IMG/VR virus record: IMGVR_UViG_3300000277_000007
Span: 1 to 38,284 of that record
DNA: 38,284 bases
DNA from: a virus
Strand: one strand, 5' to 3'
The notes beneath the pieces are model-generated. The model was given only the letters and a program-made list of their open reading frames with translations. It was not told the origin of the DNA and did not search any database. This document shows, piece by piece, positions 10,847 through 38,284 of the stretch. The position numbers and the translations under genes were made by a program. Within the stretch, counting starts at the first letter, position 1. Each line of letters starts with the position of its first letter.

Positions 10847-11344
10847 ATGGGCTATTTCCAGATTCCAGTCTCTTGGTATCGGGACGAAACGATGCTGAAC
10901 CTCATGGACAAGAACCCCGCATCCATAGGCATTTACGTGATGATGATCTCTTGGTGCTCAGACAACAAAAGCTACGGAGACATACCATACGTAGACTTCC
11001 GATATGTCCTCGATGGTGAAGATGAAGAGCTTCAGGCGCTCATAGATGCAGGACTCATCACGAAGACCGACAAGATTCGTCTGCGCGAACCCGTCTACCA
11101 CATCAAAAGCTTCAGACGCTTCGACCCGCGATCAAGGGAGCCGATCAGCAAGAAGCTTCGCAAGGCCGTGTATGAGCGTGACCATTACCGTTGCGTCGAA
11201 TGTGGAGCCACCGATCATCTGAGCCTTGACCACATCATCCCGTGGAGTCTTGGCGGCGAGGACACCATGGAGAATCTTCAGACCATGTGCCGTTCATGCA
11301 ATTCAAGGAAGGGGGACAGGGGCGATGTGGTTCAAGGTGGATGA
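10847..11344 (+). CDS. HNH endonuclease
   Basis: HYRCVECG ... LSLDHIIPWSLGGEDTMENLQTMCRSCNSRKGDR. Confidence 0.8.
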   Translation: MGYFQIPVSWYRDETMLNLMDKNPASIGIYVMMISWCSDNKSYGDIPYVDFRYVLDGEDEELQALIDAGLITKTDKIRLREPVYHIKSFRRFDPRSREPISKKLRKAVYERDHYRCVECGATDHLSLDHIIPWSLGGEDTMENLQTMCRSCNSRKGDRGDVVQGG

Positions 11345-12274: not shown

Positions 12275-12414
12275 AGAAAATCCTTGAGGAAATGATCCTG
12301 AAATGGCATGAGGACGGTATCACCCTGGAAGAAACCACCAGACTCGTACCGCAAGTGCCAAAAGCCGAAATCGAAGCCATAATCCAGCAGCATGATAAGG
12401 AGGCCCGACTTTGA
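12271..12414 (+). CDS. Small hypothetical protein (47 aa)
   Basis: ATGA coupling. Confidence 0.35.
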   Translation: MKKILEEMILKWHEDGITLEETTRLVPQVPKAEIEAIIQQHDKEARL

Positions 12415-13166
12415 CCGACTGCCAGCACTGCCACAAGCCCATGAAAACGGCGGCGACGAACATGCTCTGCGCAAACTGCCGTGAAGACTACTGGACGCTG
12501 ATCCGCCAGCTCGGACACGTCCAACTGCCCACCCTGCGCAGCATTATGCTCCGCCAGGCGCACATCGGCCCCACAGGCCACACGCCGAACAAAGGCAACG
12601 CGCCACTGCCCATCGACACCCGCGCACAAGACCTCATCAGCGAATCAGAAGCATGGCTCGCCGAACAAGCAGGCAAAATCAGGACGCAATACGGCAACCT
12701 GCCATGGGACAAGGCATGGCAGCGCATCATCGCCAACAAACACACCATATTGACGATGAGCACCGCAGCCGACGACTACACCAGCCTGCAACACATCATC
12801 CGACGCAACGAACAAGCGTTGACACCGGAAGAAGCCATGGTCATCATCGGCACCTGCCCAAAATGCGGCCACCAAGCCGCCAGCACGCCACAAGCCGAAA
12901 CATGGACATGCCCAGACTGCAAATGGCAAGGCGGAGTCCAAGCCATCAAAGCCGAACGCGACAACAAACTCTGGCAGCTCGAATACACCGGAAAACCAGT
13001 CGAAGTAGCACGCTACCTCGCCAAAATGGACATCCACTGCACCAGCGACCAGATCCGCCAATGGCTCAAACGCGGCAAACTGTCGCACGCCACGCCGACG
13101 GAACACAAGCGGCAGTACACGTTCAACCTCGGAGAAATAACCGCCATGCTTGACTGTCACAATTAA
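12411..13166 (+). CDS. Zinc-ribbon-containing protein (two CxxC pairs at each of two sites); candidate regulator at the early/late boundary
   Basis: CQHC ... CANC and CPKCGH ... CPDC. TTG start overlaps the previous stop; first ATG is at 12441. Confidence 0.5.
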   Translation: MTDCQHCHKPMKTAATNMLCANCREDYWTLIRQLGHVQLPTLRSIMLRQAHIGPTGHTPNKGNAPLPIDTRAQDLISESEAWLAEQAGKIRTQYGNLPWDKAWQRIIANKHTILTMSTAADDYTSLQHIIRRNEQALTPEEAMVIIGTCPKCGHQAASTPQAETWTCPDCKWQGGVQAIKAERDNKLWQLEYTGKPVEVARYLAKMDIHCTSDQIRQWLKRGKLSHATPTEHKRQYTFNLGEITAMLDCHN

Positions 13167-13234
13167 AATGCTATACTGTCGTATGTTCGTAGAATGGTTC
13201 AGCCGGAAAATGGTTGGACCATTTTTCATATCCA

Positions 13235-13394
13235 GCTTCGGTAGCTCAGTGGCAGAGCACAAGGGATAGCACAGATACCTAGGACGGATACCTTACCGGC
13301 CATGGCTTCCTACTTCTTTAAATCGAATGCCCGTGATGATAAAAAGACAGTGCACCCCACACAAGCGCTGGTTCGACTCCAGCCCGAAGCACCA
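13235..13394 (+). tRNA. Atypical 160-nt tRNA-like element: canonical acceptor stem (GCTTCGG/CCGAAGC), D-arm (GCTC-AGTGGCA-GAGC), T-arm (GCTGG-TTCGACT-CCAGC) and an encoded ACCA, but about 107 nt with no recognisable anticodon arm in between
   Basis: All four structural elements were read and the base-pairing checked by hand. 17 nt would be expected between the D-arm and T-arm regions. Confidence 0.5.
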
Positions 13395-13409
13395 CAAGGC
13401 GGTGATCGT

Positions 13410-13718
13410 ATGCCAGGAAGAGCACGCAAGACAAGCCGCCAATTCGAGAAAGACAAAGCAACATTCTTCGCACAGTGCAAGGCACAGCATGCAGTCTGCT
13501 GGCTCTGCGGCATGCCGATAGATTATTCAGCACCGAAGAACACAAGCGATGACAGCTTCAACCTCGACCACCTCTACCCAGTCTCGAAGCACCCCGAACT
13601 CCAATTCGACCCGGCAGGCTTCAAACCAAGCCACACCAGCTGCAACCGATTGCGCGGCAACCAAGACCCGCCAGCACCAATCGGAACACTCTCAAGACAA
13701 TGGATAACAACAGCATGA
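13410..13718 (+). CDS. HNH endonuclease (packaging-associated, upstream of the terminase genes)
   Basis: CWLCGMPIDY ... NLDHLYPVSKHPEL ... HTSCNRLRGN. ATG 13410 follows GGCGGTGA. Confidence 0.75.
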   Translation: MPGRARKTSRQFEKDKATFFAQCKAQHAVCWLCGMPIDYSAPKNTSDDSFNLDHLYPVSKHPELQFDPAGFKPSHTSCNRLRGNQDPPAPIGTLSRQWITTA

Positions 13719-37046: not shown

Positions 37047-38216
37047 ATGGCCTACACGATCCGCCAATACCAGACGAAAAGCGGAAAAAGATACGAAGTC
37101 AGATACCGTAAGCCGGACGGCACGGACACCGGCAAACGCGGCTTCAAACGCAAAATGGACGCCGATGCCTGGGGCGCAGCGAACGTGACCACAGCTAAAA
37201 GCGTCGGAGCGTACATCGACCCACAAGCCGGAAGACGCTTGGTCGAAGACTTCTGGGAGCCATGGCTGGCCGCAAAAAAGACCAAGGCCAAACCAAGCTA
37301 CATCAAGTCATTGGAGGATGCTTGGCGCGCGCATGTCATGCCTCAATGGGGAGTACGCGAAGTCCAGTCCATCACAAGGGACGAGGTGCAGCGGTGGGTC
37401 ACCGATCTGGCAGGACGACGCAGTGCGTCAGTGACCATCCGTGCTGAAAACCTCCTGCGCAGTCTCATGGAGAGGGCAAAGGCCGATCGGTGCATCCACG
37501 ACAATCCATGCGACGGCATCGAGCTGCCGCGCAAGCAGGTGCGGAAGCATGTCTATCTGTCGGCCGATGAATTGTCTCGTGTGGCGATGCAGTGCGGGTG
37601 GCGTGAGCCGATCGTGCTGACCTTGGGCCTGTGCGGCATGAGGTGGGGCGAGCTCGTGGCGCTCCGTGTCGAGGATGTCGATCTGCAACGCTGTCGACTG
37701 CATATATATAGGAGCATCACGCGTCTTTCCAGCAGGATGGTGGAGACCGACCCGAAGACCCATGATGGACGCTCGGTGATGTTCCCCCTGGTGTTGCGTC
37801 CGCTGCTCGCCAAGCAATGCGAGGGGCGCGAGCCGTCCGATTTTCTTTTCACCGCTCCCGGCGAGCCTCTGGACGAACCGATGGGCAACGGCTGGAATCC
37901 GACGCGGCACGATGGGTGGTTCGCGGTGGCGCTTCGCCGCGCGGGCGTGGAGCGTGGCCACATGACGATTCACGATCTGCGGCATACCGCCGCTTCGCTC
38001 ATGGTGCAGTCCGGCGCTAATGTCAAGACCGTGCAAAGGCAATTGGGGCACAAGTCCGCCGCCATGACGCTCGACGTGTATGCCGACCTTTTCGACGATG
38101 ATCTGGACGATTTGTCGGAGAGAATGGGCGGTTTGCTCTTTTCGCAGGATGTGGGCAAAATGTGGGCAAAAGCGACGCAAGGCATTGATGGAACCGTTGA
38201 AACGGCAAGTGTCTGA
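37047..38216 (+). CDS. int: Tyrosine integrase
   Basis: LRHTAASLMVQSGANVKTVQRQLGHKSAAMTLDVYADL (R ... HxxR ... Y). Adjacent to att. Confidence 0.9.
   Translation: MAYTIRQYQTKSGKRYEVRYRKPDGTDTGKRGFKRKMDADAWGAANVTTAKSVGAYIDPQAGRRLVEDFWEPWLAAKKTKAKPSYIKSLEDAWRAHVMPQWGVREVQSITRDEVQRWVTDLAGRRSASVTIRAENLLRSLMERAKADRCIHDNPCDGIELPRKQVRKHVYLSADELSRVAMQCGWREPIVLTLGLCGMRWGELVALRVEDVDLQRCRLHIYRSITRLSSRMVETDPKTHDGRSVMFPLVLRPLLAKQCEGREPSDFLFTAPGEPLDEPMGNGWNPTRHDGWFAVALRRAGVERGHMTIHDLRHTAASLMVQSGANVKTVQRQLGHKSAAMTLDVYADLFDDDLDDLSERMGGLLFSQDVGKMWAKATQGIDGTVETASV
38151..38168. promoter_or_regulatory. Candidate integrase arm-type site (second copy), inside the int 3' coding end
   Basis: Identical 18-mer to 111-128. 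Confidence 0.45.
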
Positions 38217-38227
38217 AGCTTTTCTCC

Positions 38228-38253
38228 TGTGGGTTCGAGTCCCGCTGGAGGCA
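38228..38253 (+). other. tRNA 3'-end-like segment (T-arm GTGGG-TTCGAGT-CCCGC plus acceptor strand TGGAGGC-A) abutting the att core; phage-borne attP copy of the target tRNA 3' half
   Basis: Canonical T-loop TTCGAGT flanked by a 5-bp complementary stem and followed by a 7-nt acceptor strand plus discriminator. No matching 5' acceptor strand is found upstream inside the phage. Confidence 0.55.
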
Positions 38254-38284
38254 CTTTTGGAAACCGCCAGAGATGGCGGTTTTC
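38251..38284. repeat. Right copy of 34-bp terminal direct repeat (att core / attR)
   Basis: Identical to 1-34. Immediately preceded by a tRNA 3'-half-like sequence and lies downstream of the integrase. Confidence 0.85.

Follow-up and report, generated by a model that had tools for sequence, protein, structure and literature searches.

A candidate tRNA-like small RNA gene with a structured insert in place of the anticodon arm, upstream of the terminase genes of gut phages

Non-decoding RNAs with the shape of a tRNA, such as transfer-messenger RNA (tmRNA), the Y RNAs and the tRNA-like structures of viruses, have each opened new biology. Phages make stable RNAs of their own that are not tRNAs. 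The C4 RNA of P1 and P7 and the CI RNA of P4 are small RNAs that are matured by RNase P and act by antisense pairing, and the T4 stable RNAs species 1 and 2 are encoded in a tRNA cluster. Lambdoid Stx phages, e.g., 933W, carry the genes ileZ-argN-argO just downstream of the late promoter and a terminator. In Mycobacterium smegmatis, the tRNA-like module of the YrlA RNA, which has an acceptor stem of 7 base pairs (bp), is processed in vivo, with cleavage by RNase P and the addition of CCA (PMC4201824). In the engineered tRNA scaffold of Ponchon and Dardel, the anticodon stem-loop has been turned into an insertion site, and the resulting chimeras are processed and protected like tRNAs in E. coli (PMC3753655). 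Here we describe a gene for a tRNA-like RNA in IMG/VR virus record IMGVR_UViG_3300000277_000007, the whole of which, 38,284 nucleotides (nt), is called the window. The gene lies at positions 13235–13394 of the plus strand and is 160 nt long, including an encoded CCA.

We consider it probable that this is a functional gene for a stable, non-decoding tRNA-like small RNA of about 157–160 nt; that it does not decode is all but certain. Among the explanations put forward in the original prediction, a tRNA-like structured RNA is the one that is supported: the element is conserved in more than 120 contigs, its stems and loops carry a signature of selection, and its helices display compensatory changes. 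A tRNA chassis with a swappable inserted domain appears to be a new arrangement within the known group of non-decoding tRNA-like RNAs, and it appears to be unannotated. No earlier description of the RNA was found in Rfam or in literature searches on phage tRNA-like elements, Bifidobacterium prophages and Collinsella.

The tRNA chassis and its inserted domain

All coordinates in this section are on the plus strand. The 5′ strand of the acceptor stem, GCUUCGG (GCTTCGG in the DNA; 13235–13241), forms seven perfect bp with CCGAAGC at 13384–13390, which is followed by the discriminator A73 at 13391 and the encoded CCA at 13392–13394. Directly after the acceptor 5′ strand come U8 and A9 (TA in the DNA; 13242–13243) and then the D arm, GCUC-AGUGGCA-GAGC (13244–13258), which has A14, G15, G18, G19 and A21. 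The T arm, GCUGG-UUCGACU-CCAGC (13367–13383), has the G53–C61 pair along with U54U55C56 and A58, and the variable loop that precedes it (13362–13366) ends in C48, the Levitt partner of G15. Every one of these motifs was found where the original prediction had placed it. Thus, the acceptor stem with its discriminator and CCA, and the D and T arms with their tertiary-interaction nucleotides, are those of a decoding tRNA (RF00005). The 5-bp anticodon stem and 7-nt loop, with U33, the anticodon and R37, are missing; the D and T arms are instead separated by 107 nt (13260–13366).

Covariance models recognize the chassis. In a sensitive Rfam scan of 13100–13500, RF00005 aligned end to end with 13235–13391 at 40.9 bits (gathering threshold 29; E = 2e-7), with 103 nt standing where the model has 17 anticodon-arm positions. 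The match to both halves is far above chance. A covariance model of the family, R1, finds one strong copy only in the window, at 13235–13394, with 163 bits. In scans of the whole window, default ARAGORN reported no tRNA and no tmRNA, and Rfam at its gathering threshold gave no match; the latter miss is due to the Rfam filters. The isotype of origin was sought by BLAST of a core-only construct against annotated phages, which returned only weak and mixed matches (Phe, Lys, Tyr). Pair 3–70 is U3–A70 rather than the Ala determinant G3·U70, and the Ala identity rule is therefore excluded.

As for the insert, RNAalifold and single-sequence folding concur on a cloverleaf in which a prolonged anticodon stem, H1, leads to a three-way junction with two hairpins, H2 and H3. 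In the prediction, an AUA/A internal loop divides H1 into a lower helix and an upper one, GCAC/GUGC; the 5′ strand of H1 (13260–13272) runs through the lower helix, AUA and GCAC, and its 3′ strand (13350–13361) is GUGC-A-CCCCACA. H1 is supported by RNAalifold and by covariation (see below). Next comes J1/2, a conserved single-stranded segment, AGAUACC(U)A (13273–13281). H2 (13282–13301) is a GGACGG/CCGGCC hairpin with a variable 8-nt loop, and H3 (13302–13334) is formed by AUGGCUUC and GAAUGCCCGU, with two bulges and a variable, U-rich 15-nt loop. The purine-rich linker J3/1, GAUGAUAAAAAGACA (13335–13349), which varies in length and shows indels in the alignment, leads back to H1. Thus, the element keeps the acceptor, T and D arms and uses the anticodon stem to close a structured insert, which is the architecture of the tRNA scaffold.

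The claim that the element lacks an anticodon arm stands in part. There is no 7-nt loop, but helix H1 does fill the position of the anticodon stem and opens into the three-way junction. That no 5-bp/7-nt anticodon stem-loop can be formed holds for the unspliced RNA; even the intron mode of ARAGORN forces only a stem of 3 G–C bp plus two mismatches.

Conservation, selection and covariation

Relatives were gathered by means of the exact 5′ half, the insert core, HNH homologues, individual distant proteins and the family covariance model. A search with an HNH alignment brought in the closest relatives only, and it was the individual distant proteins and the covariance model that led to the distant forms. 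Related loci and contigs in this comparison carry L-number labels. The exact 25-nt 5′ half is present in 81 IMG/VR contigs, and all 81 have the long form, with 147–158 nt to the acceptor end; no normal-length tRNA was found among them. Altogether, more than 120 distinct gut-phage contigs or contexts carry the tRNA-like RNA, which falls into at least four subfamilies. The window type, sub1, accounts for 92 distinct sequence contexts. Sub2 (27 contexts) has the T stem GCCGG/CCGGC, the T loop UCCGACU, in which U55 is replaced by C, H1 with GGAA/UUCC, and an A7·A66 mismatch, and it is no longer recognized by the Rfam tRNA model. Sub3 has the D stem CGCC/GGCG, H1 with CAAUCC/GGAUUG and the T stem CAAG/CUUG, and its insert, about 70 nt long, is unrelated. 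The L335 type is 104 nt long and has a single long hairpin in the anticodon-arm position. The chassis is constant across subfamilies, whereas the inserted domain is constrained within a subfamily and swapped between subfamilies. The motif A(R)AUACC..A(Y)GG is common to sub1 and sub2.

Hybrids and deletion forms also exist in the family. The T loop and 3′ acceptor strand are lost in L042 (3501–3644). L397, L401 and L417 are 73–75-nt forms in which AACGG is fused to the T loop. The H3 loop is deleted in L122 (2623–2770), the whole of H3 is absent from L381, and L403 (8525–8648) is a hybrid of two subfamilies. The natural variants L042, L397, L401, L417, L122 and L403 could serve as ready-made mutants.

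Selection was gauged in 65 distinct loci that were retrieved via the HNH protein, so that the sample is independent of the RNA sequence, and the measure was mean pairwise diversity. All stems taken together have a diversity of 0.065, against 0.063 for positions 1 and 2 of the HNH codons. Third codon positions reach 0.224, and the stems are lower than these (p = 4e-5), while loops and linkers, at 0.34, lie above them. The insert is as constrained as the tRNA core, with 0.042 for its stems plus the AGAUACC of J1/2 versus 0.063 for the core. Part by part, diversity is 0.031 in the acceptor 5′ strand, 0.03–0.05 within sub1 in the segment made of the acceptor 3′ strand, A73 and CCA, 0.008 in the D stem, and 0.089 in J1/2. 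It rises to 0.352 in the variable loop and 0.268 in J3/1. In each hairpin, the stem is set off from its loop: 0.015 versus 0.286 in H2, and 0.046 versus 0.431 in H3. Within the variable loop, the last position, C48, is retained in all sub1 variants, and the other positions vary. This pattern of stems and loops is the signature of a functional structured RNA and speaks against a decaying pseudogene. In some relatives, the encoded CCA is swapped for CUA, CAA, CUU or CUC.

Covariation was assessed on two alignments. In A3, a MAFFT alignment of 86 distinct sequences, 87% of the cells are paired, versus 26–39% when the partners are slid, and nine pairs are changed on both sides. In A4, a model-guided alignment across subfamilies, changes on both sides occur in 22 of 41 pairs, a number reached by none of 500 shuffles; the slid controls reach at most 8. 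The compensatory changes in A4 are located in the acceptor, D, H1 and T helices, i.e., in five of the seven helices when lower and upper H1 are counted separately. Across subfamilies, H1 shows double changes in 10 of its 11 pairs, the lower helix going from GGG/CCC to GGAA/UUCC to CAAUCC/GGAUUG and the upper from GCAC/GUGC to GCG/CGC. Three acceptor pairs have compensatory changes, and the D stem of sub3 supplies three compensatory pairs. T-arm pair 51–63 is seen as U–A, G–C, C–G and A–U, and pair 50–64 as C–G and U–A. In H2, 83% of the cells are paired, mostly invariantly or with one-sided changes, and covariation there gives little support; in H3, a U·G pair becomes U–A in sub2.

The host of the gut phage is probably a Bifidobacterium, as judged from flanking-protein homologues, which are named from B. 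breve, B. pseudocatenulatum and B. catenulatum. The sole match in the genome collection, L083 (CALBBA010000007.1), is a metagenome-assembled genome labelled Collinsella, whereas the named homologues of the flanking proteins are all from Bifidobacterium. The label may be a binning error, or it may reflect a broader host range.

The slot at the head of the late genes

In the window, the gene order is as follows: the gene for a 251-residue protein (12411–13166), the tRNA-like RNA, HNH (ATG at 13410; phrog_338), TerS, TerL and portal. The location originally proposed for the element, at the early/late boundary before HNH-TerS-TerL, is therefore correct. Across the family, the RNA usually lies just upstream of HNH-TerS-TerL, with the same promoter and leader hairpin ahead of it, though in L105, L142 and L422 the HNH that follows belongs to a different family. 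In L420, the upstream gene, a promoter and a hairpin come before the RNA, a terminator hairpin and convergent genes come after it, and HNH is served by a separate promoter; L424 has the terminator and the sequence downstream of the RNA in common with L420. It follows from this stand-alone layout that the RNA is a gene of its own and not obligatorily the 5′ untranslated region of HNH-terminase mRNA.

A σ70-type promoter, TTGACT-16 nt-(TG)TATACT, was found by scanning at 13150–13177 (plus strand), with 10 of 12 matches and the TG of an extended –10; it overlaps the end of the 251-residue gene. The segment is near-invariant in the alignment (diversity 0.055 in the 65 HNH-retrieved relatives), and we infer promoter activity for it. 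Between the promoter and the RNA gene lies a leader hairpin (13191–13225, plus strand) with 15 bp and a 5-nt loop, running into a U-run: UUUUUCAUAUCCA. Its fold energy is –19.8 kcal/mol (z = –3.8), none of 200 shuffles is as stable, and the stem is preserved in relatives through a compensatory change from U–A to C–G. The predicted structure resembles a terminator or attenuator. Analogous hairpins, followed by the leader UCAUAUCC, are found at sub3, L335-type and tRNA-Trp loci. Segment 13178–13228 has a –10-like TAGAAT in the initially transcribed region and then the hairpin and U-run, right after a strong promoter, a layout that resembles the Q-dependent pR′/tR′ of lambdoid phages.

The gene at 12411–13166 (phrog_908) could be a candidate late regulator. 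AlphaFold is confident only for a C-terminal part of its protein that holds a zinc ribbon and a winged-helix-like fold. Searches with the protein gave only sub-threshold zinc-ribbon matches in Pfam/NCBIfam, a PHROGs family of unknown function and no PDB sequence match, and the best Foldseek match in the PDB had an E value of 0.5. On the other side of the RNA gene, public gene calls for HNH often run to 129–176 residues versus 102. With the RNA undetected and an in-frame ATG available at 13302, ahead of the HNH start at 13410, the calls are overextended, which amounts to a systematic misannotation. A conserved coding extension from ATG 13302 was considered and rejected, as element lengths differ among relatives by non-multiples of 3. 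The annotations of these phages are thus systematically wrong at the locus: tRNA finders miss the RNA, and the HNH reading frame is run through it.

Sister phages have other occupants in this slot: a canonical tRNA-Trp(CCA) (60.7 bits), tRNA-Trp together with a second element termed TLE-2, or further tRNA-like RNAs. In others the slot is vacant, with nothing tRNA-like found in L286–292 and L303–305. The slot is thus accessory and mosaic, at the head of the late genes, which would make the RNA accessory rather than essential. In L222, a canonical tRNA-Trp(CCA) at 2783–2858 is followed at 2860–2970 by TLE-2, a cloverleaf-like RNA of about 110 nt; the same arrangement occurs in L233, L243, L244, L246, L248 and L275. 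In TLE-2, the acceptor stem is joined by a D-like arm, a hairpin whose loop is GNRA-like or 5 nt long, a long extra arm and a T arm that carries an A53·C61 mismatch; Rfam does not recognize this RNA. Homology of the insert to TLE-2 was considered; a 15-nt match exists to one form only (12 of 1000 shuffles reach it), with none to the other forms, and the relationship is unproven.

Two further occupants of the slot are of note. About 180–240 nt upstream of HNH, L232 and L247 have an "armless" element of 56 nt, GGGCUGA...UCAGCCC-G-CCA. It has no D or T arm; what it keeps is an acceptor stem of 7 bp, G73-CCA and a long hairpin bearing the Trp anticodon CCA in its loop. From its sequence, it looks like a reduced derivative of tRNA-Trp. 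Directly upstream of HNH, L234, L236, L242 and more than 15 other contexts have a 75-nt tRNA-like gene, called "tRNA-??? (tcaa)" by ARAGORN. It has good acceptor, D and T arms, and its anticodon region is a direct repeat, UCCGAU..UCCGAU, that would be unable to pair; by its predicted pairing it is another non-decoding tRNA look-alike. In L222, a Gp49/HI1420 (HigBA-like) toxin–antitoxin pair lies at 2082–2668, between the homologue of the 251-residue gene and the slot promoter.

Elsewhere in the window, a tRNA 3′ fragment at 38209–38256 (T arm GTGGG-TTCGAGT-CCCGC plus TGGAGGC-A) lies between a tyrosine-recombinase open reading frame (37047–38216), which it directly follows, and a terminator-like hairpin. 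The phage probably integrates into a tRNA gene, with this fragment as its attP core. The early region contains a second HNH endonuclease gene (10847–11344; PF01844) and a gene for an RNase_T/DEDD-family exonuclease (871–1731; PF00929).

Alternative readings, proposed role and known systems

Three readings would bring the element back to known ground. If the insert were an intron, spliced out by itself or by proteins, a decoding tRNA of about 77 nt would result, and ARAGORN in intron mode does call a tRNA-Ala(UGC) in the window, with an 83-nt intron at 33/34; in that model, U would be the last base of the 5′ exon and G that of the intron. However, the anticodon stem so restored is the mismatched one described above, and U3–A70 stands where alanine calls for G3·U70. 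Moreover, the calls for 40 close variants differ (Ala-UGC, Thr-AGU, Ala-AGC/GGC and Phe-GAA, with no call in one variant), as do the boundaries; five differing calls do not amount to a consistent anticodon arm, and no call is made in sub2, sub3 or the L335 type. Known group I introns, whose P3–P9 catalytic core usually takes 200 nt or more, are far larger than the insert of 83–107 nt, and the insert has no Intron_gpI match at E ≤ 10. An Rfam scan of 13100–13500 at E ≤ 10 yielded the tRNA family only, the rest being noise, with no group I intron, ribozyme, tmRNA or Y RNA match. An archaeal-type bulge-helix-bulge (BHB) motif is likewise lacking: the AUA bulge and 4-bp helix have no second bulge, the opposite strand offering a single A, and sub2 has a 2-nt bulge and a 3-bp helix. 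The host is bacterial, and to our knowledge bacteria are without the BHB splicing endonuclease. The small-intron tRNA of the original prediction is thus very hard to sustain. Least credible of all is a miniature tmRNA-like molecule, in which a tRNA-like domain and an internal domain would serve trans-translation. The topology is right: the two ends pair into an acceptor stem that goes with a T arm and ACCA, and the helix in the place of the anticodon stem leads on to an internal domain. Against this, ARAGORN was negative with -m and with -m -ps, pair 3–70 is U–A rather than G·U, and there is no tag reading frame with resume codon and stop; no pseudoknots were detected. No reading frame is conserved, because the H3 loop, which alone offers a long single-stranded stretch, is hypervariable in both length and sequence, and L122 has lost it. 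In addition, tmRNA lacks a full D stem, which the phage RNA has. A decaying tRNA pseudogene, disrupted by an insertion and at present without function, might explain the deletion variants and mismatches (L042, L122, the 73–75-nt forms, A7·A66 in sub2 and the variable CCA) and would suit a slot that also houses clearly degenerate tRNA relatives. It is nonetheless highly improbable, given stems as conserved as non-synonymous codon positions, loops whose drift outpaces that of synonymous sites, five of seven helices with compensatory changes, and retention in more than 120 distinct contexts. An insertion-disrupted tRNA may fit the distant origin of the element, but not its present state, in which the insert's own stems are under purifying selection.

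Two other readings grant the element a function and differ on what it is. The first makes it an element that serves the processing or stability of the late mRNA in cis, in the manner of tRNA punctuation or of the tRNA-like t-elements that are reported to help form mRNA ends in plant mitochondria (PMC1920247). RNase P and 3′-end enzymes would cut at the tRNA-like fold, removing the leader hairpin and deciding where the HNH-TerS-TerL transcript has its 5′ end, and no function would fall to the RNA itself. The slot is able to hold a genuine tRNA-Trp, and in the window and most sub1 and sub2 loci, 15–17 nt free of any terminator separate the end of the element from the start codon of HNH on the same strand. 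That an adjacent mRNA end is not obligatory is shown by L420, and apparently L424, where the RNA stands alone with its own terminator hairpin; some sister phages have nothing tRNA-like in the slot, and a mere cleavage signal would not need an inserted domain under purifying selection. We regard this reading as unlikely. About equally doubtful is a tRNA mimic or decoy, a specific version of action in trans, in which the acceptor/T/D half is bound or attacked by a host factor that does not depend on the anticodon, e.g., a tRNA-binding regulator, or a toxin or defence enzyme whose target is the CCA end; lacking an anticodon loop, the RNA would stay off the ribosome. In its favour, what all subfamilies conserve is the chassis with its tertiary-interaction nucleotides, whereas inserts are swapped; no form restores the anticodon loop; and counter-defence genes typically sit in accessory, mosaic places such as this slot. 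On the other hand, no linked defence or toxin gene was identified; the encoded CCA is variable; sub2, with its C55 and A7·A66, lies beyond the Rfam tRNA model; and the constraint on the sub1 insert would be unnecessary for a pure decoy.

We return to the reading set out at the beginning, a stable, non-decoding tRNA-like small RNA with a gene of its own, and propose that its primary transcript would be matured like a tRNA. RNase P would cut at G13235, and 3′ trimming and/or the CCA enzyme would then complete the 3′ end. Maturation would free the RNA from the leader and from the HNH-terminase mRNA and would confer nuclease resistance. The mature RNA would act in trans, through the inserted cargo domain, through the tRNA-shaped half as a mimic for a tRNA-binding factor, or both. 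We infer passage through the tRNA pathway because of the YrlA and engineered tRNA-scaffold precedents.

Several points weigh against this reading. Maturation by RNase P and the CCA enzyme is a prediction from sequence. A4 is an alignment fitted to the model; covariation is scarce in H2 and H3 despite their conservation, so that the case for their fold lies in prediction and in how stem and loop diversity differ; and the fold energy of the whole element is unexceptional (z = –1.06). The window RNA ends 15 nt before the HNH start codon, and a cis role is possible there. Natural deletion forms (L122, L381, the 73–75-nt forms and L042) occur in otherwise normal-looking contigs, and the encoded CCA is not kept across subfamilies. 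A search for antisense targets of the element within the window gave matches of 12 nt at most, on the minus strand and within the range of shuffled controls, and no partner gene or informative neighbour was found.

A bolder proposal, which we offer tentatively, is that gut Bifidobacterium phages use a natural, modular "tRNA scaffold". The chassis would recruit host tRNA maturation and protection, and the interchangeable cargoes (sub1, sub2, sub3 and L335 type) would be the effectors, e.g., by acting in late infection as decoys for, or inhibitors of, tRNA-targeting defences or other factors of the host. The RNAs would then form an unrecognized class of phage small RNA, invisible to tRNA finders and Rfam. 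Insert swapping on a constant chassis is a testable handle on phage tRNA mimicry at the onset of late gene expression.

How does the phage RNA compare with known systems? It shares with the canonical tRNA (RF00005) the 7-bp acceptor stem, U8/A9, the D arm with G18/G19, the T arm UUCGACU with G53–C61, the G15:C48 pair, A73 and CCA, and differs in having about 100 nt, H1 and the three-way junction, in place of the 5-bp/7-nt anticodon stem-loop. The tRNA-like domain of tmRNA likewise combines an acceptor stem, a T arm and ACCA ends with an internal domain that is reached through a long helix in place of the anticodon stem; unlike tmRNA, the phage RNA is without G3·U70, a tag frame or detected pseudoknots, has a normal D stem, and is about half the size of the smallest tmRNA. 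YrlA Y RNAs are also non-decoding tRNA mimics, with a T arm, a D arm and an acceptor-like stem, and occur in phages too. However, the ends of YrlA sit in the Ro60-binding helix and its gene lies beside rsr, which encodes Ro60, whereas the ends of the phage RNA form the acceptor stem and its neighbours encode HNH and the zinc-ribbon protein; there is no Rfam Y RNA match, and TROVE was looked for in the flanking genes only.

Among phage systems, the Stx-phage slot is alike in having a late promoter, a terminator-like hairpin, tRNA gene(s) and late genes in succession, but the Stx tRNAs decode, and the element described here cannot. With C4, CI and the T4 RNAs, the phage RNA would share the character of a phage-encoded, stable non-tRNA RNA that relies on tRNA-processing enzymes; unlike C4 and CI, it has no antisense target above chance in the window, and no sequence or Rfam relationship links them. 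The engineered tRNA scaffold has the same architecture, with a structured insert closed off by the anticodon stem and with acceptor, T and D arms retained. The scaffold is man-made, whereas the phage arrangement is natural, conserved and selected, with inserts that differ by lineage and with a processing and stability that are predicted. The phage RNA, which is common among phages of a genus that is key in the infant gut, would be a counterpart of that scaffold from nature.

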